Source of the DNA: Patescibacteria group bacterium
GTDB lineage: Bacteria > Patescibacteriota > Minisyncoccia > 2-02-FULL-40-12 > GWA2-44-9
DNA: 64,000 nt
Direction: 5' to 3'
Assembly: GCA_038064515.1 (NCBI GenBank)
Contig: JBBTSY010000004.1
Span: forward strand, 96,585-160,584
Part shown: piece after piece, positions 1,088 to 59,453 of the stretch
How positions within the stretch are numbered: the stretch's first letter is position 1
Layout: every line of letters starts with the position of its first letter
Made by a program: the position numbers and the translations under genes
Notes under the pieces: generated by a model
Told to the model about the DNA's origin: nothing
The model's database searches: none
What the model saw: only the letters and a program-made list of their open reading frames with translations

Positions 1088-1160
1088 TGCGCCCACCAGG
1101 ACTCGAACCTGGGACCTTCTCCTTAAAAGGGAGCAGCTCTACCAACTGAGCTATGGGCGC
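1088..1160 (-). tRNA. tRNA-Lys: tRNA-Lys, anticodon TTT (UUU), 73 nt, no encoded CCA.
   Basis: The reverse complement folds as a cloverleaf: acceptor GCGCCCA/TGGGCGC, D-arm GCTC-AGTTGGTA-GAGC, anticodon loop CTTTTAA (anticodon TTT), T-arm CCAGG-TTCGAGT-CCTGG, discriminator A. Confidence 0.8.
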
Positions 1161-1411
1161 ATTCTTATAAATCCTTCATCAACCATCTTCTCAATGTAAT
1201 CCTTCCTCTTTAGTTTTTTCAATTTTCTTTCCACGCTTCTCGCCTCAACCAACGTATCATACTCCTGACTTAAGACTAGACGCAGTCTACCTAACCTCTT
1301 TGTTGATGGAGTATATCCTCCTAAGTGGTGTTTTAGCCTTTCATCCAAATTTTCCGTACTACCAATGTAATACCTATTATATTCACTTTTAAGTATGTAG
1401 ACGTAATACAT
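1151..1411 (-). CDS. GIY-YIG (URI-domain) nuclease-family small protein, 86 aa. Its last three codons and stop (ATG CGC CCA TAG = MRP*) are supplied by the 5' end of the tRNA-Lys gene.
   Basis: Translation MYYVYILKSEYNRYYIGSTENLDERLKHH shows the GIY-(x10)-YIG motif with the conserved R/H/E/N. Confidence 0.7.
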   Translation of the reverse strand: MYYVYILKSEYNRYYIGSTENLDERLKHHLGGYTPSTKRLGRLRLVLSQEYDTLVEARSVERKLKKLKRKDYIEKMVDEGFIRMRP

Positions 1412-1537
1412 CGAACTGAGTCCCGACGCTCGAAGAGGTCGGGACCCCGACTTATCGTCGGGGCTATGGGCGCGTAATCCGGAGCTATATTAGCAGGAAA
1501 AACCTATTTCTTCAACACACGAAAACAATTTAAATCC

Positions 1538-4449: not shown

Positions 4450-5514
4450 TTACGCTTTTCGGAGTGCGTACGTTCCGTCTTCGTTTTTTACGAAGTGAGT
4501 ATTGTCTTGGAGATTCAAAAGAATGGTGTTCTCTTTAACCATGCGTGCGTCCATGACGCGCGCCACGAGATCACTCTTTGCCAAAGGATGGGCAGAGTTG
4601 CGGAGAATATCTACAAGCACCTCTTTAACGGTTCCTGACTTATAACCCCATTCGGCAAGAGCATACATGCCGCGGCCCACGAGCACGAAGCGATTATCCT
4701 TAATCAGTTCGTTATGGACGGTCTGGATATTTACCGATTTCTGATCATTGAAATTGGCAGTATTGATGAGTTTAGCGATATCGGCAAAATGACGGGCTTC
4801 GCCTTCTTTTTTCATAATAAGATAGGCTTTATCGCGAACGCCCTTTGGCCTCACTTCGGGCCACGTAGCCAAACCAACTTCTTTAAAGATGTTCCTGGAA
4901 AGATCCTTGGAGATTGCCATGCACGCAGTAAGTTGTTTTTCTGAAAAGTCTGGGCCATTTGAGGCTACGACGCCTTGTTCAAGGGCAAAGTTGTAAACCT
5001 GCTGTTCCGATACAACCGCGCCTTTCTTTCCGAAAGCGGCGGTAAGAGAGTTAATGACCCGGTGGAGCTGATCAGATTTTTTCTGATCGATCGCCCAAAA
5101 AACATGATAATGATCATTCTCGTCGAATTTTACGAGTTCCTTATTGAAGGTAAGGATAAACGACAAAGAAGCATTTATTGCATCGTACTTCTCGGTGCCG
5201 CTGAACGCGTTGAAAAGATCTCGCTCCTTCATGATGCCACCCTCCTTGGATAATATAGCCTTGATAGCGCTTATATATTTCAGGACATCTTTGTGGTCGC
5301 CCGTTGATTTTGCGAGTTGAGTAAGCGTCGATTCTTCAATCTGCCGGACGCGCTCTCGAGTGATGCTGTAGCTCTGGCCGATAGACTCAAGCGTTTCACG
5401 CTTGCCATTTTGAAGACCAAAACGCCGAGTAACAATATCTCGGTTTCGTTCGGAGAGAGGTTTGATAATACTGGCTATCGTGGCTCTTAATGTTTTGAGG
5501 TCTTGTTTGTTCAT
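4450..5514 (-). CDS. Putative transcription regulator: a sigma-70 region-4-like HTH (N-terminal) fused to a C-terminal HARE-HTH domain. The start is taken as the ATG at 5514; the ORF track alternative is a GTG at 5526.
   Basis: LSERNRDIVTRRFGLQNGKRETLESIGQSYSITRERVRQIEESTLTQL resembles sigma70 region 4. C-terminus ...EARHFADIAKLINTANFNDQKSVNIQTVHNELIKDNRFVLVGRGMYALAEW resembles HARE-HTH. Confidence 0.5.
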   Translation of the reverse strand: MNKQDLKTLRATIASIIKPLSERNRDIVTRRFGLQNGKRETLESIGQSYSITRERVRQIEESTLTQLAKSTGDHKDVLKYISAIKAILSKEGGIMKERDLFNAFSGTEKYDAINASLSFILTFNKELVKFDENDHYHVFWAIDQKKSDQLHRVINSLTAAFGKKGAVVSEQQVYNFALEQGVVASNGPDFSEKQLTACMAISKDLSRNIFKEVGLATWPEVRPKGVRDKAYLIMKKEGEARHFADIAKLINTANFNDQKSVNIQTVHNELIKDNRFVLVGRGMYALAEWGYKSGTVKEVLVDILRNSAHPLAKSDLVARVMDARMVKENTILLNLQDNTHFVKNEDGTYALRKA

Positions 5515-5653
5515 CCTTACACTCACTTAGCATTTGTGGCTTGCCCGTTCGTCTAGCTAGGGGTACCACGCCTGATAGTGAAAACTTAGTTACTTTTTTA
5601 TATAGTATTGACCGCCACACTCCAGAACGCGATGCTAAGTGAGTGTGAGGATT
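5512..5653 (-). promoter_or_regulatory. Conserved ~140-nt leader element (copy 1). A 19-bp long-range inverted repeat (1 mismatch) encloses ~98 nt. The proximal arm GTGAGTGTAAGG abuts the ATG of the regulator gene.
   Basis: Arms are 5515-5533 ccttacactcacttagcat and 5632-5650 atgctaagtgagtgtgagg. A second copy with compensatory arm changes is at 59228-59373. Confidence 0.5.
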
Positions 5654-5710
5654 CATCTCGTTAAATTACCCGTAAGAAAACAATATCATTAATACCGAAT
5701 TAAGTCAAAT

Positions 5711-8076: not shown

Positions 8077-9546
8077 TTATTCATCTAACGATTCTTTTTC
8101 TTTGCTCTTGGATGGCTTCTGGTTCTCTAGCCATTCTTTGACCAAGAGCGTTGCGCGGACATCGTCTTCATTATAGCGGAGAAGCCGCTTGAGGATAGAT
8201 TCGTCGCCTTTATCGAGCCACTCGTTATACCAAACTACCGACTCTGCCCCGCCAGCGTTGGGGTTATCCCAGCGATAGCCGAGATGATAAGCAATATCTT
8301 TAAGCGTGTAGAAATAGACCGGCAGGACCACGGAATCTACAAACCGTGTATGGAGGTCAATCGTATTTTCTCGAAACTTGTGAATCAGTTCCGTGGGCGC
8401 GCCATACTGAACTACCATGCGATCAAACACCTGGTTTTCATAGTAAGCATAGTGATAGATGACAAAATCATCGAGTGTGACCAGGAAATCCAAAAAATCC
8501 CGCCACATTTTTTGTTCTTCGCTCTTTTCTTTGGCCAAGAAGTATCGGTATTGTGTTTCTTCCGTTTCCGTATTCTTAATCAGCACGCCCAAAAGATAAT
8601 CAATATCGCGCGTCGGATCGCTTTCGATATCAAAGTATACCTCATGCTTTACCTTCGGAAATTCCGGTTTGCGAAGGATCATCGGCTCACCCGATATGAG
8701 AACTTTTGCCTGGTTATTGAGGCGGACTAATTTATCAAATGGCCACTCTTCCAGCTTACTGCGCAGATCATCAAGATTGGCATCAGCCATATCCTGTACG
8801 GTTTTAATGCCGATGTTGTAGAGCTGGCGCTGATCAGATTGACTAAGGCGATGAATGAGCGAAACGTCGTTACAGCCTTGCGCATCAGAGAGGCATACCG
8901 AGTACCAGGGCGTTCGCTTACATCCGCCCTTAAGAAACGGTGCCGGTTTTTCGCCGTTGAGAACTTTTTCAATTTGCTCGCGGGTCAGATGAAACTGATC
9001 AACAAAATCATTTACTAAAAAAGAGCGTTCGTTATTGTTCGCATCAATTACATAGGCTTCTTTGGGCCGCACGCCTTGGAGTTTTTCCAAGATCAAGCTG
9101 TAAAACACGAGCGGAAACTTGAATTCATCCCGAAGATCGAGTGATTGCTGGGCATCATAAGCAACGTAATACCAATCGCCAAATTCTGACTTCTCCGGCT
9201 CGCCTTGAATCTGGTGAAGGGGACGCGCTTCCAGAAGATCGGGCATACCTACCCACTTGCTGCTCATCAATACGCCATGATAGATATTCTTACCCTGCTT
9301 CATGAGTTCCAGCGTTGCTAGAAATGCTTCGTCGAGGTCGCGGAAAAGTTCGGGTTTAATTTCTTCAAATTTCTTGTGCTCCCGAAGCATCGAGCCGGCA
9401 TCGCGCATTTTTCCTTTGAAAATCGTTTCCAAGAGAGGCGCCATCTGTCGCTTTCGCGTAGAGTCGCCATAAATGTCATACCAAATCCAGTGCGGACATT
9501 GGAAAAATTTATAAAAATGATCGGATGTCAGTTTTGGTGTATCCAT
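8077..9546 (-). CDS. RecB-family PD-(D/E)XK nuclease with a Cas4-like Cys cluster and an RNase-H-like C-terminal domain (TM0106-like architecture).
   Basis: N-terminal FQCPHWIWYD, …GMPDLLEAR…, central CKRTPWYSVCLSDAQGC cysteines, and a C-terminal acidic exonuclease-like region (YFDIESDP…, …YNEDDVRAT…). Confidence 0.45.
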   Translation of the reverse strand: MDTPKLTSDHFYKFFQCPHWIWYDIYGDSTRKRQMAPLLETIFKGKMRDAGSMLREHKKFEEIKPELFRDLDEAFLATLELMKQGKNIYHGVLMSSKWVGMPDLLEARPLHQIQGEPEKSEFGDWYYVAYDAQQSLDLRDEFKFPLVFYSLILEKLQGVRPKEAYVIDANNNERSFLVNDFVDQFHLTREQIEKVLNGEKPAPFLKGGCKRTPWYSVCLSDAQGCNDVSLIHRLSQSDQRQLYNIGIKTVQDMADANLDDLRSKLEEWPFDKLVRLNNQAKVLISGEPMILRKPEFPKVKHEVYFDIESDPTRDIDYLLGVLIKNTETEETQYRYFLAKEKSEEQKMWRDFLDFLVTLDDFVIYHYAYYENQVFDRMVVQYGAPTELIHKFRENTIDLHTRFVDSVVLPVYFYTLKDIAYHLGYRWDNPNAGGAESVVWYNEWLDKGDESILKRLLRYNEDDVRATLLVKEWLENQKPSKSKEKESLDE

Positions 9547-20035: not shown

Positions 20036-21325
20036 ATGATGGATCGGTATAAGGAAGCTCTGCGTCAGCTTCTGCTCCGCCTACAGCAGTATACGAAGAC
20101 GGATATGATCTACCTCGCTCGAGGCGGTTTTTGGTCAACAGCTCCTTTTATCTTTAGTTCCGTCCTATCGATAGCCCTCGTCTGGGCTTTCGCGAATCTC
20201 CTTCCGAAAGATATTTATGGAACTTATAAATTCGTCATGTCTCTTTCTGGATCACTTAGCTTTCTCACTCTTACAGGAATTAATATCGCAGTTACTCAAG
20301 CTGCGGCGCGAGGCTACGAAGGAGTACTCCCTTATGCCCTTAAAATCCAATTGCGCTGGAATGTCCTTTTTACGATAGCAATGTTCGGAGTAGCTGGCTA
20401 CTATTTTATCCATAATAATGCGCTCATCGGCACTGCCGTATGCATTCTAGCGGTAACATTCCCTTTGACCACTTCTTTTAATACCTACGGCGCTTATCTT
20501 TTCGGAAAAAAACAATTCCGACAGATTGCAGGATATCAAATTTTTACCAGTTTTTTTTATATAGCCGCTATGGTGAGTATTCTCGCTGTTACCGACAATC
20601 TTTTATTCATTATCACCGTCTATGCTCTTGGTAGCCTTACCCCTCTCCTCTTTTTCTATTACCGCACTCTGCAATTAAGTGGTGAGCAGAGTCAGTTTTT
20701 AGCCGAACAAAAAGCTCAATTTCTAAACTATCTCAAGCACCTTAGTGTGATGAATATTTTCTCCACGCTTTCGCAATATGTAGATAAAATTGTTGTATTC
20801 CATTATTTAGGAGCTGTAGAACTGGCCGTATACGGAATTGCTTTAGCGATACCCGAGCGTATCCGCGGATATTTTAAAACCCTCACCGCATTAGTGATGC
20901 CGAAAGTTTCCGGAAAAGAGATTATAGACCTCCGAAAAACCTTCTATATGCGCTTATCCCAAGCTTTTCTCCTTGGGCTCTTAATAAGCATTTCTTATAT
21001 TATAGCTACTCCGCACATATTTAAACTCCTGTTACCTGCATACCCCGAGTCAGTTCGGTATTCGCAAGTAATTGCTCTTGTTTTTATTTTTTTGCTCCCG
21101 GGGACCTACATCGCAGAAATATTCCGTGCCCATGCTATGATTCGCGCCCTATACCTCAGTAGCGTCATCGCGCATATATCGAGGATTATTCTTTTCATCG
21201 CATTTGGAATTATGTGGGGAGTGTGGGGGGTCATTATTGCCTCCCTTACTGTTACCTTCGTGGGACTCTTCTGGAATATTCTCCTATGGGAGATCGAATC
21301 TCGTCGTCGGATCGCTACCTTTTAG
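20036..21325 (+). CDS. Second Wzx-like flippase / polysaccharide biosynthesis membrane protein.
   Basis: 429 aa multi-TM with a MOP-flippase-like layout, divergent from the previous gene. Confidence 0.5.
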   Translation: MMDRYKEALRQLLLRLQQYTKTDMIYLARGGFWSTAPFIFSSVLSIALVWAFANLLPKDIYGTYKFVMSLSGSLSFLTLTGINIAVTQAAARGYEGVLPYALKIQLRWNVLFTIAMFGVAGYYFIHNNALIGTAVCILAVTFPLTTSFNTYGAYLFGKKQFRQIAGYQIFTSFFYIAAMVSILAVTDNLLFIITVYALGSLTPLLFFYYRTLQLSGEQSQFLAEQKAQFLNYLKHLSVMNIFSTLSQYVDKIVVFHYLGAVELAVYGIALAIPERIRGYFKTLTALVMPKVSGKEIIDLRKTFYMRLSQAFLLGLLISISYIIATPHIFKLLLPAYPESVRYSQVIALVFIFLLPGTYIAEIFRAHAMIRALYLSSVIAHISRIILFIAFGIMWGVWGVIIASLTVTFVGLFWNILLWEIESRRRIATF

Positions 21326-43625: not shown

Positions 43626-44786
43626 TTATAAATTCGAAATTAATAAGGCAGTTGTCTCATTTTCCATTTTAGTTACATTTAATTTCCGGAGCGTATTGCT
43701 TCCTTCTTCAACAAATTTTTCTCGGATGTCCGGCATCGCCCATAGCGTTTTAATGGCTTCGATGAGATTGAATTCGTCGTTGTATTTTACCAAGAAACCA
43801 TTTTCGCCCTGCTGAATAATTTCTCGATTCCCGCCTACTGCTGTGGTGATAATAGGAACTCGAGCGGCCATAACTTCTAATAGCTGGTGCGAGAAACCTT
43901 CATAACCGGTATTAAGGACGAATAAATCGGCGGCCGCGAGGTACGTGGCAAGCTCTTCGCTTCGCTTCTTCCCCACTAGATAAACTTTCCGATCAAGGCC
44001 CAGGTTTTTTACCATCGCCTGGAGAATCTGAAATTCAGGGCCATCACCGATAATAACCAGCCTAAAGAATTGATTTACCCGCAGTAGTTGAGGCATTATC
44101 TTGATGAGCATGCGGAATCCTTTCCAGGGAACCATGCGACCCGCTGATACGATTATGTTACCTGAAATGCCGATCTGCTTGCGCGCTTCCTCTTTCGATA
44201 GTGGAGAGGGTTCAAATTCAACTCCGTTATAAATCACGGTGATGGCATCCTTGCTAACGCCCCAGCCTCGCACAATTTCCGAAAGATATATCGAAGGAAC
44301 TATGATACGAGCGGCATGTCCGCACACCCATATCTGAATCCGGTGAATAATGCCAATCCATCCTCGGCGCGGTTCTTTCTGGAAATCATTGATTAGAAGA
44401 TTAGTTTTTCCTGACTGAATTGCCGTCTCCCAGGCACGATCGCCTACGATTTTCACGATATATTTCTTTTTGAAAAATCGAGATGCCACGAGTGCCGTTG
44501 GCCCCGCGTTAATGGCATTTAATGCGAAAATTAGATCATGATTTTTCGCCGCAAAGAAAACTTTTATCGCGTAGATTGCGTGCCGCACCGGCCATGGCCA
44601 CTTCTTCCAAATTCTGACTACGGCAAATGGCAGGGATTTGTCTCCCTGATCGCTCCACACCGATGAATAGGTGATAACCGTCACACCGTGTGCCTGGGCA
44701 AGTTTCTTACCAATTATTTGAGCATACGATGCCGGCCCGCCAATCTCGGGACTAAAAATCCCTGTTATAATAAGAAGCTTCTTCAT
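43626..44786 (-). CDS. GT4 glycosyltransferase.
   Basis: …GYEGFSHQLLEVMAARVPIITT…. Confidence 0.65.
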   Translation of the reverse strand: MKKLLIITGIFSPEIGGPASYAQIIGKKLAQAHGVTVITYSSVWSDQGDKSLPFAVVRIWKKWPWPVRHAIYAIKVFFAAKNHDLIFALNAINAGPTALVASRFFKKKYIVKIVGDRAWETAIQSGKTNLLINDFQKEPRRGWIGIIHRIQIWVCGHAARIIVPSIYLSEIVRGWGVSKDAITVIYNGVEFEPSPLSKEEARKQIGISGNIIVSAGRMVPWKGFRMLIKIMPQLLRVNQFFRLVIIGDGPEFQILQAMVKNLGLDRKVYLVGKKRSEELATYLAAADLFVLNTGYEGFSHQLLEVMAARVPIITTAVGGNREIIQQGENGFLVKYNDEFNLIEAIKTLWAMPDIREKFVEEGSNTLRKLNVTKMENETTALLISNL

Positions 44787-45067
44787 CCTGTAGTAGAATT
44801 TTGATTAATTTTTCGATTATATAAATAATCTTTAATTCTAGATTTAATTAAACGTCCGCCTTGGGTAGTCTTTAGATATTTCTCTCTTCGCTTAGCGTCA
44901 CTTTCTTCTAGGCAAGCTTCGTAATAAATTAGTTTCCACGGCATATACCTTTTGGTCGAAAAATTCAATCCTCGATTATGTTCTAATAGGCGTTGCTTTA
45001 AGTCGGAGGTGAAACCAGTATATAGTTCGCCATTCATTTCACTTTGGATAATGTAGGTATAGAACAT
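44783..45067 (-). CDS. GIY-YIG nuclease-family small protein; second copy in the window.
   Basis: MFYTYIIQSEMNGELYTGFTSDLKQRLLEHN. Confidence 0.65.
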   Translation of the reverse strand: MFYTYIIQSEMNGELYTGFTSDLKQRLLEHNRGLNFSTKRYMPWKLIYYEACLEESDAKRREKYLKTTQGGRLIKSRIKDYLYNRKINQNSTTG

Positions 45068-45094
45068 AATCAGATCAAAATTTCACTACGGGAT

Positions 45095-46231
45095 TCATGA
45101 TACATGATCATAGACTGACCGCATTGCCGTGGCAACCTGGTTCCAATGGTAGCGCTGTGAAACAAGTATTCGAGCTGTCGAGATAATGTGACTCCTAAGC
45201 GGCTCGTCTTCAAATACTATTTTTATGGCTCGGACGATATCGCTAGGACTGTGAGGATCGCATACCATTCCGGTTTCCCGATCTTTTAGGAAATCGGGGA
45301 TGCCGCCCACATCCGAACCAACCACTGGAACGCCGGCCGCCATTGCTTCCAAAAAAGCATTGCCAAGCCCTTCCGAGTAGGAAGGGCGGACAAATGCGTC
45401 GGCAACAGCTAAGTATCGAGGAAGATGATCATAAACTATTTCTCCGACCCAGCGGATATCGTTTTTAACCCCAAGGTTCTCTGCTAATCGTATAAGATCT
45501 TCTCTAAGCGGCCCCGCTCCTGCGAGAATAAGCACTGCTGGTCTGGATTGTTTCAGCTCGGCAAACGCGCGGATAAGATTATCGATGCCGTTTTTTTGAA
45601 TAAGGCGAGATACGGAAATAAGAACCGATATTCCAAAGGGAATTCCAAGCTGTTGTTTTAGTTTTAATTGTTCTTCATCAGAAACTTTCTCGGTAAAAAG
45701 CTCGATATCGACACCGTTAGGAATGACGTTTACTAAAAGCGATGGGCGCACGGAATGTATGAATCGCTCTAGATAAGTACTGATAGCCGTAGCATAATCA
45801 GCCCGAGCAATTATAAGCCTGCGAAAAAATCGAACTGCCAGAGATTGGGCATTCAGGTCCTTGCCTTCCTGCAGGGTAAGGATAAAAGGAATGGGCTTGA
45901 ACCACCGAAGAAGCCAAGCGGCGCTTGCGCCGTACGAGGCCTGATAAGCATGACTAGCATGATAGCGGCCTGCGGCTGTTAACTGGTATCCCCGAAAAAA
46001 ACCTAAAATCGGAAACAAGTATTTATCCAAAAAGGAACCGAAACCGACCCGATGGATCGTGTTGTTGGTTTGACGTTCGTCGTGTAGATCGTTTCGATAC
46101 CGAGGAGTGATAATATCAAAAAACATATCGGGTAATCGACTTGCAATTTGCTCAATAGCGATTTCGGAACCTCCCACAAACGGCCGGTAGGCAGTTGAAA
46201 AAATAAGGATTTTCTTTGATTTTTCGGGCAT
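45095..46231 (-). CDS. GT4 glycosyltransferase.
   Basis: …SEGLGNAFLEAMAAGVPVVGSDVGG…. Confidence 0.65.
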   Translation of the reverse strand: MPEKSKKILIFSTAYRPFVGGSEIAIEQIASRLPDMFFDIITPRYRNDLHDERQTNNTIHRVGFGSFLDKYLFPILGFFRGYQLTAAGRYHASHAYQASYGASAAWLLRWFKPIPFILTLQEGKDLNAQSLAVRFFRRLIIARADYATAISTYLERFIHSVRPSLLVNVIPNGVDIELFTEKVSDEEQLKLKQQLGIPFGISVLISVSRLIQKNGIDNLIRAFAELKQSRPAVLILAGAGPLREDLIRLAENLGVKNDIRWVGEIVYDHLPRYLAVADAFVRPSYSEGLGNAFLEAMAAGVPVVGSDVGGIPDFLKDRETGMVCDPHSPSDIVRAIKIVFEDEPLRSHIISTARILVSQRYHWNQVATAMRSVYDHVS

Positions 46232-54790: not shown

Positions 54791-55146
54791 TTTAATTTAG
54801 TTTATTTCTTTCCTGAACTGTATTACCACCAACCTTGCGGTAGGGATAAATCGACCAGCTATAGAAAAGAAGTTTTATTCTTTCTTTATTATTACTTCCT
54901 TATAACAACTTTCTTTCGCCCAGCCCTTACGTAAGGCTGGGGGTAGAACCTTGGTAAAGCTACCGCTAGGATTCGCTTAAAGCGAACTAGACCCATCATG
55001 TATTTGTTTCGACCAATACATTTGAGATGGTAGCTCTATCGACTTAAGATTCCAGCTATTAACAATTGGGAGAGACATCCTGTTATACAATCTTGTTTTC
55101 GTTTCAACCGTTATGGGAACATAAATTGTCAACGTTCTTTCCTGAA

Positions 55147-55210
55147 CCCCACACTCAGTTAGCGACAGCTATGCGACGGCTTGTTGAAAATATCACCAAC
55201 TGAGTGTGGG
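55147..55210. repeat. 14-bp perfect inverted repeat ccccacactcagtt…aactgagtgtgggg with a 36-nt loop. The arms resemble the arms of the conserved leader element at 5.5 kb and 59.3 kb.
   Basis: Seen directly. Lies in the 540-nt intergenic region upstream of the giant surface-protein gene. Confidence 0.4.
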
Positions 55211-55569
55211 GTGAACAACCTACCTCTTTGCAATTCGCTTCGATCACAGAGGGATAGATGGTCCATATCCTCTTAACTAGCAAAAAACAACCAATTATAC
55301 CTGGCTATCTACAAGGCTTTTATAGCTCCATTATTGTCATATTATTTCCTTTTGCCAACAACTTTATGGCGATACCTTTGGTTTATGACTTATGCCATGA
55401 ATCCTATCAAACCTGAACCCAAAGGTCAACTAACATGGCCTAAGTTTCATAACAGCTTCAGTGAGTACCAAAGCCTCATCCGTAACCTCACTACTGATTA
55501 TATTCCACGTCTTGCTAAGCAACAATAGCAAAATGTGGATAAAACCCGATAGGCGTTAATCAGAAAGAA

Positions 55570-56505
55570 CTACGGGGTAACCGAGTTTTTGAATTTGGGA
55601 GTACCGCGCAGAGGCTGGGGTGGATTACCAGCATCCATACCCGTCGTAATAAGACCAGTATTGGTGGCCCAGTTGGATGAGTCGGCACCAGGTAAAATAG
55701 CACTAATGCGCTCCATGGAGGCATACGACGGGTTACCTGTGGAGTCAGTCCCTGCAAACCAGCCTCCGAAGCAGGGGACAGAATCTATTATAACTCCCCC
55801 GGTATCGCGTAACATGAGGTTTTCGCCATCAGGCAGATTCTTGAGGCCAGATCCCCCAAATGAGCCATGTATATTGGCCGGAATGTTGGAGATTGTTGTA
55901 TCGTCGGTTCGTTCAATTAAATAATATGCTCCTGCGGCAATGCTACCAGTTAGGGTGATAATTCTAGTCTCGTTTTCAAACAACGCCCATCCATCAAGAT
56001 TAATCGCTACACTTCCAGTATTGTAGAGTTCAATCCATTCGTCGCCGCTGTAGTTCGCAGTCCCCGCCCAAGCAATTTCATTGATGACGACATGTGCTAA
56101 ACCAATGGCTGGTGTTGGAGTTGGTGACACCGGAGGCGGACCAGCCTCCGGCTGGGGGGTTAGGATCGAAGATGGGATGGGGGTACGGGAAGGGGTTGGC
56201 GTAATAAGTGTTGAGATACGCGGTATTACCGCAGGGCTTGGTGACATTGTTGGTGACACGATGGTGACACTTGGTGACATTGTTGGTGACAATAAATTTG
56301 TCACCAAGGAACTTGGTGACAAAATCGGTGTCACTAAGGTTGTCACCAAGGAATTTTCTTTCAGTGGAGTAGAAGTACCTACCGCCTCCGGCAATGAACC
56401 AGCTAAAAACGAAGGTCTATCTTCAAAAAGAAAGAGCGTTACGAGAGAAAGCGTAATAATGGCAATTCCCCAGCTGATGACATGGTTATGGGTGAATTGG
56501 AGCAT
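55570..56505 (-). CDS. Secreted or membrane-anchored lamin-tail-domain (LTD) protein with a Pro/Ser/Thr-rich linker.
   Basis: …VVINEIAWAGTANYSGDEWIELYNTGSVAINLDGWALFEN… shows the LTD signature. N-terminal TM and PSPxxP linker. Confidence 0.55.
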   Translation of the reverse strand: MLQFTHNHVISWGIAIITLSLVTLFLFEDRPSFLAGSLPEAVGTSTPLKENSLVTTLVTPILSPSSLVTNLLSPTMSPSVTIVSPTMSPSPAVIPRISTLITPTPSRTPIPSSILTPQPEAGPPPVSPTPTPAIGLAHVVINEIAWAGTANYSGDEWIELYNTGSVAINLDGWALFENETRIITLTGSIAAGAYYLIERTDDTTISNIPANIHGSFGGSGLKNLPDGENLMLRDTGGVIIDSVPCFGGWFAGTDSTGNPSYASMERISAILPGADSSNWATNTGLITTGMDAGNPPQPLRGTPKFKNSVTP

Positions 56506-56555: not shown

Positions 56556-56635
56556 CCTGCCTGCGCAGGCAGGCTTTTCAGGAGCATTGCATTAAGGAGG
56601 GATAATAATTCAATACACCTGCCTGCGCAGGCAGG
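56556..56635. repeat. Two perfect 18-bp palindromes CCTGCCTGCGCAGGCAGG (56556-56573 and 56618-56635), 62 nt apart, in the leader region of the LTD gene.
   Basis: Seen directly. Confidence 0.6.
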
Positions 56636-58291: not shown

Positions 58292-59230
58292 TTATCGAGA
58301 AATTTTAGGAAATTTATCTGGATCAATAGTGCGATCGAAGCATACCCGCCCCGCATCATGGGCCCAGTTTGATTCGACGCCACCATAGGAAGCTTCTGAC
58401 ATCGGCTTCGGTTGATTCAACGACGCATCATGATTGTCCTTTTTAAATGTCGCGCAAATCTGGAATGATTTGTCGCCGAGGATGCGATATTCATAGGCCG
58501 CCTGTGTTTCTGGGTCAAGCGGAGCCTTAAACCCGCTCAATGAATCAGTGAGAGCATCAAGATTTGGGGGTAATTGCTGTTTAGCCTGCCAATATGAGAC
58601 GATCTGCCATTGAATTGATGTAAGGTCCTGAACGCGGCGTTCATCAAATCGATTCAAGCGCTGGGCCTGGGGCGATCCCGCCACAATAAACCCGCCGACA
58701 ATACCTGCCACGATCAAAGCGATAATAACCTTGGAAAAAACTTTTGTTGATCGCTGTTCTTCGCGCAGTTCATTAAGATAATAAAAGAAAACTGAACTGG
58801 CGATGAAGAAAATGCTTAATATCTTTAAAACAAATCGCAGTGTCAGCTCACCTTGCATAAAGCTATAAACCAGGGCAATCAGATCGCCGATCACCACGAT
58901 ACCCGCCACAAAAAGCGTAAGATACAGAAGCCATTTTCTGATCTTCAGCTCTCTCTTTTCGGGATTTGCCTGGATGTCTTTTTTCAAAAAGCGAGATATC
59001 CATAGAAAGACCGGAAAGACGATCACGAGTGCAGAAACGGCCCAGCGGATGACTTGGTAGTATTGGCTGGAAGAATAGTAATTATACTGATCGGTAATCG
59101 CGTCAGGAAATGCGACATTAATGAGCTGAAACAATAGCGTCCCGAAATTCACTGCCAGCATGCCCAGCGCCACAATCGAAAGAAGATACAAAAATACGTC
59201 GCGGGGTAAGTTTTTATTGAGATTTTCCAT
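58292..59230 (-). CDS. Hypothetical polytopic membrane protein with a soluble C-terminal domain. Start taken as the ATG at 59230; the ORF-track GTG at 59242 is the alternative.
   Basis: MENLNKNLPRDVFLYLLSIVALGMLAVNFG… and 4-5 TM segments. Confidence 0.45.
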   Translation of the reverse strand: MENLNKNLPRDVFLYLLSIVALGMLAVNFGTLLFQLINVAFPDAITDQYNYYSSSQYYQVIRWAVSALVIVFPVFLWISRFLKKDIQANPEKRELKIRKWLLYLTLFVAGIVVIGDLIALVYSFMQGELTLRFVLKILSIFFIASSVFFYYLNELREEQRSTKVFSKVIIALIVAGIVGGFIVAGSPQAQRLNRFDERRVQDLTSIQWQIVSYWQAKQQLPPNLDALTDSLSGFKAPLDPETQAAYEYRILGDKSFQICATFKKDNHDASLNQPKPMSEASYGGVESNWAHDAGRVCFDRTIDPDKFPKISR

Positions 59231-59373
59231 CCTTACACTCACTGACGAGATATGGCTCGCGTTCCGTAAAGCATAGTGCTGCGGAGAAGCTAGACATTAC
59301 AGATCAGTTTTAATTAGTATATACACAAATCATCGCCATCTCTAGGAATCACTCGTCTGTGAGTGTGAGGATC
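59228..59373 (-). promoter_or_regulatory. Conserved ~140-nt leader element (copy 2). Arms are 59231-59249 ccttacactcactgacgag and 59352-59370 ctcgtctgtgagtgtgagg. The proximal arm abuts the ATG.
   Basis: The outer 13 nt are identical to copy 1. The inner 6 nt differ on both arms in a compensatory way. Interior blocks (CTAGCT, ACGGAACG, GCGAGCCA) are also shared. Confidence 0.5.
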
Positions 59374-59453
59374 CATAGAAAAAGTGTATCAGATTGGGCA
59401 AAAAATTCAATTAGTTAGTTCGATAAACTTACTACAAGAATGTCCAGTTTTTA

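Follow-up and report, generated by a model that had tools for sequence, protein, structure and literature searches.

A putative start-codon-directed miniature mobile element in a Patescibacteria genome and its relation to GIY-YIG gene units with terminal inverted repeats

The 64,000-nucleotide stretch of DNA analyzed here (the window) belongs to an uncultivated Patescibacteria group bacterium from groundwater (GenBank assembly GCA_038064515.1, contig JBBTSY010000004.1, positions 96,585 to 160,584 of the forward strand) and contains two copies of a hairpin element whose inverted repeats run into the start codon of the gene behind them, a polytopic membrane protein gene in the case of copy 2 and a gene for a sigma-like protein in the case of copy 1. 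This arrangement raises the question of whether such a hairpin belongs to the gene that it precedes, as a regulatory leader, or has been inserted there. As described below, copy 2 is probably a non-autonomous, gene-less mobile element of MITE type (MITE, miniature inverted-repeat transposable element), about 142 bp long, with terminal inverted repeats (TIRs) of about 20 bp that consist of (T)CCTCACACTCAC and a private inner part of 7 nt, and derived, without the open reading frame (ORF), from a GIY-YIG mini-element bounded by TIRs. All genes around both copies are on the minus strand, and the features are as follows:

59383..59410, minus strand: host promoter, with the -35 element TTGAAT (59405-59410), a 16-nt spacer and the -10 element TACACT (59383-59388), 6 nt from the distal ATG.
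59372..59376, minus strand: distal ATGGA repeat; comparison with the contig L054 identifies it as the start codon that the leaderless DUF5671 gene had originally, and as its probable transcription start.
59352..59371, minus strand: gene-distal (5') arm of copy 2, reading T-CCTCACACTCAC-AGACGAG on the minus strand.
59250..59351, minus strand: interior of copy 2, with the subfamily motifs TTCCTAGAGATGGCGA, an AT-rich TATATAC box, a CCGC..CGG hairpin and AACGCGAGCCAT, and without a GIY-YIG-homologous ORF.
59231..59249, minus strand: gene-proximal (3') arm of copy 2, reading CTCGTCA-GTGAGTGTAAGG on the minus strand and abutting the rebuilt ATG.
59226..59230, minus strand: proximal ATGGA repeat, the working DUF5671 start codon; the A and U of the AUG are the last two pairs of the stem.
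58292..59230, minus strand: downstream gene, coding for a DUF5671 polytopic membrane protein of 312 aa (PF18920).
5510..5656, minus strand: copy 1, with ATGAA repeats at 5652-5656 and 5510-5514 and arms at 5632-5651 and 5515-5533.
4450-5514, minus strand: gene downstream of copy 1, coding for a Sigma70_r4/HARE-HTH protein, with copy 1 at its start codon.

On the plus strand, the arms of copy 2 read CCTTACACTCACTGACGAG (59231-59249) and CTCGTCTGTGAGTGTGAGG (59352-59370), and form inverted repeats with two mismatches, in exact agreement with the initial annotation of this DNA; their pairing can be extended by AT on either side, to 59229-59249 and 59352-59372. The arms of copy 1, placed at 5513-5533 and 5632-5652 by the inverted-repeat listing of the window, are 95% complementary. 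The same annotation correctly described the outer arm and the ATG junction as identical in the two copies, since the outer 14 nt are shared and the gene-proximal arm passes directly into ATG in both (GTGAGTGTAAGGATG). The common 14-mer, GTGAGTGTRAGGAT, has four exact occurrences in the window; when up to two mismatches are allowed there are five, compared with 0.41 expected, and none of 100 shuffles reached five. The inner 7-bp stems differ between the copies (TTAGCAT/ATGCTAA in copy 1 and AGACGAG/CTCGTC(A) in copy 2) yet each remains self-complementary, so that their difference is indeed compensatory. The structure that had been delimited is real, but it was drawn slightly too short: with its flanking 5-nt repeats, copy 2 occupies 59226-59376, with 142 nt between the repeats. 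Read on the minus strand, both copies have the layout 5'-ATG(A/G)A-T-CCTCACACTCAC-N7...N7'-GTGAGTGTAAGG-ATG(A/G)A-3', in which the downstream gene begins with the second ATG. Both fold as RNA into a long terminal stem (copy 1, -47.9 kcal/mol, z = -3.55; copy 2, -47.3 kcal/mol, z = -2.32), and the coding content of copy 2 is limited to a 20-codon junk upstream ORF (uORF), MDPHTHRRVIPRDGDDLCIY.

The nature of the two copies becomes apparent when the orthologous junctions of relatives are considered. At the copy 2 site, the 95% relative (L054) reads TTGAAT-N16-TACACT-ttttct-ATGGAAAATCTC, and the window differs from it only in having 146 additional nucleotides behind ATGGA, after which ATGGA recurs; the filled junction reads ...ttttctATGGATCCTCAC... 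and the empty one ...ttttctATGGAAAATCTC.... The 71% relative (L057) has kept the promoter as TTGAAT-N16-TACAAT-N8-ATG with no insert; the 73% relative also lacks it, and among the orthologues without the element L056 has TACAAT 7 nt before the ATG. At the copy 1 site, the spacer between secF and the sigma-like gene measures 196 nt in the window versus 31-55 nt in relatives with 95%, 83% and 72% protein identity, and copy 1 is missing from the orthologous site in L002, L004 and L005; these relatives read ...TAATTTAACGA(T)AATGAAYAAAC..., and the window has the same sequence plus about 142 nt after ATGAA, and then ATGAA again. The target sequences, ATGGA for copy 2 and ATGAA for copy 1, are thus present once in the relatives and twice in the window. 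The 95% relative has no full copy at either site, keeps a 75-nt member of the family described below, and carries a full, 83%-identical copy before another gene. Judged from these alignments, copy 2 entered the leaderless DUF5671 gene between +5 and +6, whereby the first 5 nt were duplicated, and copy 1 goes back to a separate insertion, in which a sister element settled at a different gene's start codon. The duplication can be read as 5 nt, leaving one surplus base on the left, or, equally well, as 4 nt (TGGA) with symmetric TCC...GGA ends, in which case the last A of the element would complete the ATG. Because ATGGA stands on both sides of the insert, the gene keeps an intact ATG right after the element, with the old promoter and the old ATG lying 146 nt upstream. 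The conservation of this promoter in relatives without the insert argues that it is a real promoter and that the mRNA was formerly leaderless.

The genome context agrees with a leaderless origin. A TANNNT box is located 5-9 nt before the start codon in 13 of the 39 window genes, compared with a background of 7.8%, and Shine-Dalgarno (SD)-like 4-mers are found upstream of 3/39 genes, compared with a background of 6.9%, i.e. without enrichment. As a pattern of sequence, this combination of TANNNT near the ATG with rare SD motifs is the signature of leaderless mRNAs. The AAGGA of the proximal arm was considered as an SD sequence and is not credible as such, because it abuts or overlaps the AUG without a spacer and the genome lacks SD enrichment. 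An internal sigma-70 promoter was also discarded: copy 2 has one promoter-like site, but the best scores over 12 members equal those of shuffled sequences, with no strand bias and no fixed position. The same applies to translational coupling or in-frame read-through from the distal AUG, since the uORFs of the members have 6-86 codons and variable ends without a consistent design; the two start codons are 131-147 nt apart across members, and all three frames are represented. It should be mentioned that the gene-proximal arm (59231-59242 and 5515-5526 in the window, and also in L139 and L141) is in frame with the host gene and contains GTG or ATG (GTG AGT GTA AGG ATG, i.e. MSVRM). As a consequence, gene starts are sometimes placed within the arm by ORF finders and in public gene calls, and false N-terminal extensions result; in L139, atpD is called from the ATG of the arm. 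An exact-protein look-up of the 312-aa DUF5671 product gave no match, probably because gene callers start at the GTG within the arm.

In order to find further members, metagenome contigs were scanned with a two-arm pattern, which gave 47 loci, a number close to the chance expectation; 12 of them were recognized as real by their extended arms and start-codon flanks. The 11 independent ORF-less insertions, found in groundwater Patescibacteria, are all located at start codons, and all have the same orientation relative to the downstream gene, as judged by interior motifs. The genes behind the members are unrelated (secD, rpmE, tsf, a PilB-like ATPase gene, an FAD-oxidase-like gene and membrane protein genes), and the pattern-scan members are flanked by direct repeats of ATGAA, ATGGA or GTGAA, with the exception of L036. 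Near-identical elements precede different genes in the pairs L019/L036 and L026/L031, and the contigs L001 and L147 end within an element, as expected of repeats. By its protein homologues, the window falls within the Patescibacteria, near Yanofskybacteria-like Paceibacteria. DNA identical to that of the window was found in Hainich groundwater contigs and in the metagenome-assembled genome GCA_964360865.1. A member at L028 4942-5074, with GTCAA flanks, is located within the 3' end of an opposite-strand gene, so that start codons appear to be the usual, not the obligatory, site. A covariance model added two diverged members. One of them, L039 5215-5347, is located at the tsf start codon and has entirely different arms (CCCGTTAGAGAC) in the same layout, with an ATGAAT repeat; the other one is in the window:

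55142..55216, strand unassigned: third ORF-less member, diverged, 75 nt, with arms CCCCACACTCAG and CTGAGTGTGGGG and TTCA on both sides.

This third member (31.4 bits, E = 4e-5) is conserved at L054 14047-14111. The segment that holds it, 54791-55569, extends for about 780 nt without an ORF of at least 90 aa upstream of a 1126-aa gene, and an Rfam scan of this segment gave no match.

All members fold with a terminal stem of 20-22 bp, whose co-variation across 11 sequences includes seven pairs with double changes, and the interior is their least conserved part. Such co-variation fits an RNA stem as well as the matched ends of a transposon, and is therefore by itself no indication of a sensor. 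The two-arm pattern was without a match among the GTDB species genomes, whose representatives do not include the lineage with these exact arms; no similarity was found in plasmid and phage collections, and Rfam scans, both at gathering thresholds and at E up to 1, returned no family. A perfect 120-nt palindrome in L051 is probably an assembly fold-back, and the single viral-contig match (L145) is a chance match. In L054, a 26-nt mini-palindrome (20467-20492, TCCCACACTCATGCATGAGTGTGGGA) composed of only the two arm motifs and followed by a T-run is located 40 nt upstream of a full element; it may be either a terminator-like hairpin or the remnant of an element that has lost its interior.

The characteristics of MITEs are hence found together: a small size without a transposase ORF, TIRs, a target duplication checked against empty sites, three copies in 64 kb, and presence or absence among relatives. 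A candidate for the mobilizing partner was traced from a lone arm on contig L028, where a 314-bp unit (9069-9382) at the start codon of a 594-aa gene has the structure ATGGA-TCCTTACACTCACCGAGCC-[87-aa ORF]-GGCTCGGTGAGTTGTGAGGA-TGGA, with the same arms and the same ATGGA target as copy 2. The 87-aa ORF is a GIY-YIG catalytic domain (PF01541, E = 4e-18). Its nearest looked-up homologues (P0243, P0244 and P0246) all have CACACTCA-type arms, and L144, one of the three nearest homologues, has TGAAT/ATGAAC flanks. Two GIY-YIG ORFs are also present in the window:

44782..45098, minus strand: GIY-YIG unit of 308 bp, with a 94-aa ORF (44783-45067), 21-bp TIRs (45073-45093 and 44786-44806) and TGAA on both sides.
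1150-1473, minus strand: second GIY-YIG ORF (1172-1411) at the 5' end of tRNA-Lys (1087-1160), with the 11-mer GCGCCCATAGC at 1463-1473 and at 1150-1160.

The first of these units sits in the ATGA stop/start overlap of the ORFs 45095-46231 and 43626-44786, and the TGA stop of its 94-aa ORF overlaps the rebuilt ATG. The second has no long TIR; short hairpins (CCCCGAC..GTCGGGG and TCCCGAC..GTCGGGA) lie upstream, and its ORF stops in the first bases of the tRNA.

An alignment search of species-representative genomes revealed more than 551 GIY-YIG loci, mostly in Patescibacteria. When 75 homologous ORFs from 80 genome loci were scanned for bounded units (TIR score of at least 12), 63 of them were found to be bracketed by inverted repeats, in units of about 275-310 bp. 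Seventeen of these 63 units are located at tRNA 5' ends, where the right repeat end together with the duplicated target rebuilds the tRNA 5' end; three (L097, L117 and L130) end just 5' of the P4 motif of RNase P RNA (AGGAAAGTCCGA), that is, at the P3 position, and at a further locus, L078 1898-2550, a class A RNase P RNA match is 653 nt long with a GIY-YIG unit inside. Others adjoin start codons or TTGAC boxes. The units in L100, L108 and L120 have repeated TTGA(C) flanks, as if inserted in a -35 promoter box, and these flanks suggest, on the basis of sequence, that the family as a whole targets promoter-proximal sequences. The ORFs match PF01541 with E = 1e-13 to 1e-18, and Y3, Y5, Y16, G18, R26, H30 and E62 are invariant in 29 sequences. 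Whereas the tRNA-borne units share a common site, the start-codon units have only about 5 nt in common, and the units carry TIRs, which homing genes do not need. The comparison of ends shows the arms of the ORF-less elements to be homologous, as far as sequence can tell, to the terminal repeats around small (84-94 aa) stand-alone GIY-YIG genes in Patescibacteria. The junctions likewise show, by alignment, that the units of about 290 bp insert co-directionally at gene 5' ends (start codons, tRNA position ~8 and RNase P RNA P3) and rebuild the 5' end of the target. A tblastn search with a GIY-YIG protein detected no GIY-YIG remnants inside the ORF-less elements. We infer from this architecture that the ORF-less element would be mobilized in trans by a nuclease-encoding unit.

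Several observations weigh against a MITE-type element with a GIY-YIG partner. The ORF-less elements have a partly conserved interior, whose inner helices (RUGGC/GCCAY) co-vary; this could mean a function at the RNA level. The members L036 5316-5465 and L136 (28-nt arms) have inverted flanks (ATTCAC...GTGAAT and ATTTATTGA...TGAATAAAT, respectively), and their palindrome is 6-9 nt longer and covers the start codon, so that neither a simple target duplication nor cut-and-paste explains them. The length of the target duplication can be taken as either 4 or 5 nt. The arms of the window GIY-YIG unit (TCCCGTAGTG...) differ from those of copies 1 and 2, and the partner with matching arms is seen only on L028, a contig from the same aquifer, not in the window genome. 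Finally, GIY-YIG enzymes are known as hydrolytic and not as strand-transfer enzymes, and a role of the nuclease in mobility would be deduced from the architecture only.

The last points would favor a classical MITE moved by an ordinary transposase (e.g. of the DDE type) encoded elsewhere, with the GIY-YIG ORFs as passengers or independent users of similar hairpins. DDE transposition is marked by TIRs and a short duplicated target, no DNA-joining activity is known for GIY-YIG nucleases, and a 2006 survey assigns them nucleolytic roles only (Dunin-Horkawicz 2006, PMC1564403); the differing arms of the window unit would be accounted for as well. We nevertheless consider this explanation unlikely, since only GIY-YIG ORFs were seen between such arms in a transposase screen of the window and loci that was not exhaustive, the ORF fills the unit of about 290 bp from arm to arm in 63/75 cases, and the nearest nuclease homologues have the nearest arm sequences. 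Such tracking of nuclease subtype by arm type is expected if protein and ends co-evolve. The regulatory interpretation of the initial annotation, in which an RNA leader (thermometer, riboswitch or translational operator) hides the start codon and controls the two genes jointly, fares differently in its parts. The two related copies are now 5' leaders, with a stable, co-varying stem that reaches the AUG in both copies and a fixed orientation relative to the gene, all of which a dedicated cis-regulatory RNA would share. A conserved leader linking two genes to a common stimulus finds no support: the element is absent from orthologous leaders (L002, L004, L005, L054, L056 and L057), target-site repeats flank it, the downstream genes are unrelated and in one case the site is the 3' end of an opposite-strand gene. 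Rfam contains no matching family, not even with E raised to 1; conservation is lowest in the interior, the place expected for a sensor; and a near-perfect stem of about 20 bp, with about -45 kcal/mol for the whole element, greatly exceeds the stability of the known ROSE and fourU thermometers. A sensor RNA is therefore highly improbable.

Even less can be said for an inverton, in which the inverted repeats would be recombinase sites around a flipping promoter in the AT-rich center. The AT-rich segment between inverted repeats and its promoter-like hexamers on both strands would suit this idea, but copy 2 is identical in sequence and orientation in four independent assemblies (the window, L040, L146 and L147), the interior has the same orientation in 11/11 independent members, promoter-like scores inside the elements are no higher than in shuffles and show no strand preference, and the empty sites reveal the whole unit as an insertion; we give this explanation practically no chance. 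A different kind of alternative accepts the mobile element and concerns only the fate of its RNA: RNase III would cut the 21-bp stem, as in an rRNA intervening sequence (IVS), leaving a few leader nucleotides and bringing back near-leaderless translation. The Correia-element stems of Neisseria are RNase III substrates, and every member has a perfect or near-perfect terminal duplex of 20-22 bp. RNase P RNA and rRNA genes accommodate related GIY-YIG units in their interior (PMC11270868), which implies that the hairpin is neutralized at the RNA level. On the other hand, no cleavage site is fixed by sequence, and in this SD-poor genome unprocessed internal initiation is evidently possible at other genes. 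Processing of this kind is possible, with the balance tilted against it.

For the mobile element with a GIY-YIG partner, the following course of expression can be proposed. The conserved leaderless promoter would make an mRNA that starts at the distal AUG (59376), with the element as its leader, and the arms would pair as a 21-bp stem, beginning at +5 and reaching the A and U of the rebuilt AUG. Such pairing would make it harder for 70S ribosomes to load at the 5'-terminal AUG and would hold the insertion in a compact form; initiation of the true ORF is predicted for the AUG located where the stem ends on its 3' side. Three routes may be envisaged: (a) direct initiation at the stem-foot AUG, (b) opening of the stem by a ribosome on the 20-codon uORF, which ends in the loop, and (c) cutting of the stem by RNase III. 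In a wider and more tentative proposal, to which we give somewhat less than an even chance, the ORF-less hairpins and the units of about 290 bp, with inverted repeats of 14-28 bp and a bare GIY-YIG nuclease of 84-94 aa, would constitute an unrecognized class of mobile elements, the smallest autonomous transposon-like units known, with a nuclease in place of a transposase. Their targets would be the first nucleotides of a gene, be it the start codon of a leaderless mRNA, the 5' end of a tRNA, the P3 region of RNase P RNA or a -35 box; expression would then come from the host promoter, and the host gene would go on functioning thanks to the rebuilt 5' end and the RNA hairpin.

Two further repeats of the window deserve mention. 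Identical 18-nt perfect palindromes, CCTGCCTGCGCAGGCAGG, are located 44 nt apart in an intergenic region (56556-56573 and 56618-56635), and palindromes similar to CCTGCCTGCGCAGGCAGG are found upstream of groES at L028 4838-4880; by their sequence, they look like a separate, REP-like repeat family. At 56237-56350, inverted and direct repeats containing CTTGGTGACA, with 39-nt arms that are 79% complementary, apparently lie within the ORF 55570-56505.

The element has practical and conceptual implications. In annotation, its hairpins are liable to be mistaken for riboswitch-like leaders, to create false N-terminal extensions (MSVRM, MDP) and to break Patescibacteria assemblies. It shows the survival of a 5'-terminal-AUG-dependent gene after an insertion at +5, and provides a natural test bed for start-codon choice beside a stable stem in SD-poor bacteria that use leaderless mRNAs. 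It also connects the widespread "stand-alone" bacterial GIY-YIG proteins, hitherto treated as housekeeping proteins with no assigned role, with a mobile way of life in which ends and targets are defined. Should the nuclease suffice for mobility, the chemistry of transposition would be a new one, and no smaller autonomous element would be known to date.

The comparison with known systems places these features in context. In the literature, whose coverage was incomplete, we came across neither TIR-bounded GIY-YIG units nor start-codon MITEs, which is therefore not proof of novelty. The Correia elements of Neisseria (CREE/NEMIS) and other bacterial MITEs are alike in having about 100-155 bp, TIRs, a short target duplication, no ORF and many copies, in inserting beside genes with which they are co-transcribed, and in arms that form a long RNA stem. 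The Correia elements have no sequence similarity to the present one, whose arms are TCCTCACACTCAC and whose target is an (A/G)TGRA start codon instead of TA; in addition, the orientation to the gene is strict here, the candidate partner is a GIY-YIG nuclease and not a DDE transposase, and the host belongs to the Patescibacteria. As a MITE, judged by its sequence, the element is new in its targeting and rebuilding of start codons, its strict orientation and its GIY-YIG partner instead of a transposase. The Rickettsia palindromic elements (RPE) are also small, palindromic and mobile, with an insertion compatible with gene function, but they are translated in frame within the protein, whereas the present element stays outside the ORF by means of the start-codon duplication. 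The rRNA IVS, which are removed by RNase III, resemble it as extended stem-loops in a transcribed gene that are tolerated through isolation or removal of the stem; they differ in being located in rRNA helices without target duplications, and for the present element removal at the RNA level is only a possibility. Because sequence, target and partner all differ, the element stands outside the Correia, RPE and IVS families. RNA thermometers (ROSE, fourU) and SD-masking leaders share with it a hairpin that includes translation-start nucleotides, but they are short and of marginal stability, belong to a specific gene and are conserved together with it, in contrast to a stable stem of about 20 bp that is mobile and resides in an SD-poor genome. 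With regard to the nuclease, a 2024 survey of rRNA insertions in the candidate phyla radiation (CPR) reports insertions that are not introns and carry GIY-YIG ORFs, "outside the context of homing" (PMC11270868), and the 2006 survey treats stand-alone bacterial GIY-YIG proteins as Slx1-like housekeeping enzymes (PMC1564403). The CPR ORFs and the free-standing homing genes (T4 Seg, I-TevI) are alike in being a small GIY-YIG ORF on an insertion in an essential CPR gene; TIRs, target repeats and ORF-less derivatives are not described in those reports (PMC11270868, PMC1564403). Classical homing endonucleases, finally, combine a DNA-binding domain with a long specific target, in contrast to the bare catalytic domain of 84-94 aa that characterizes the units described here.

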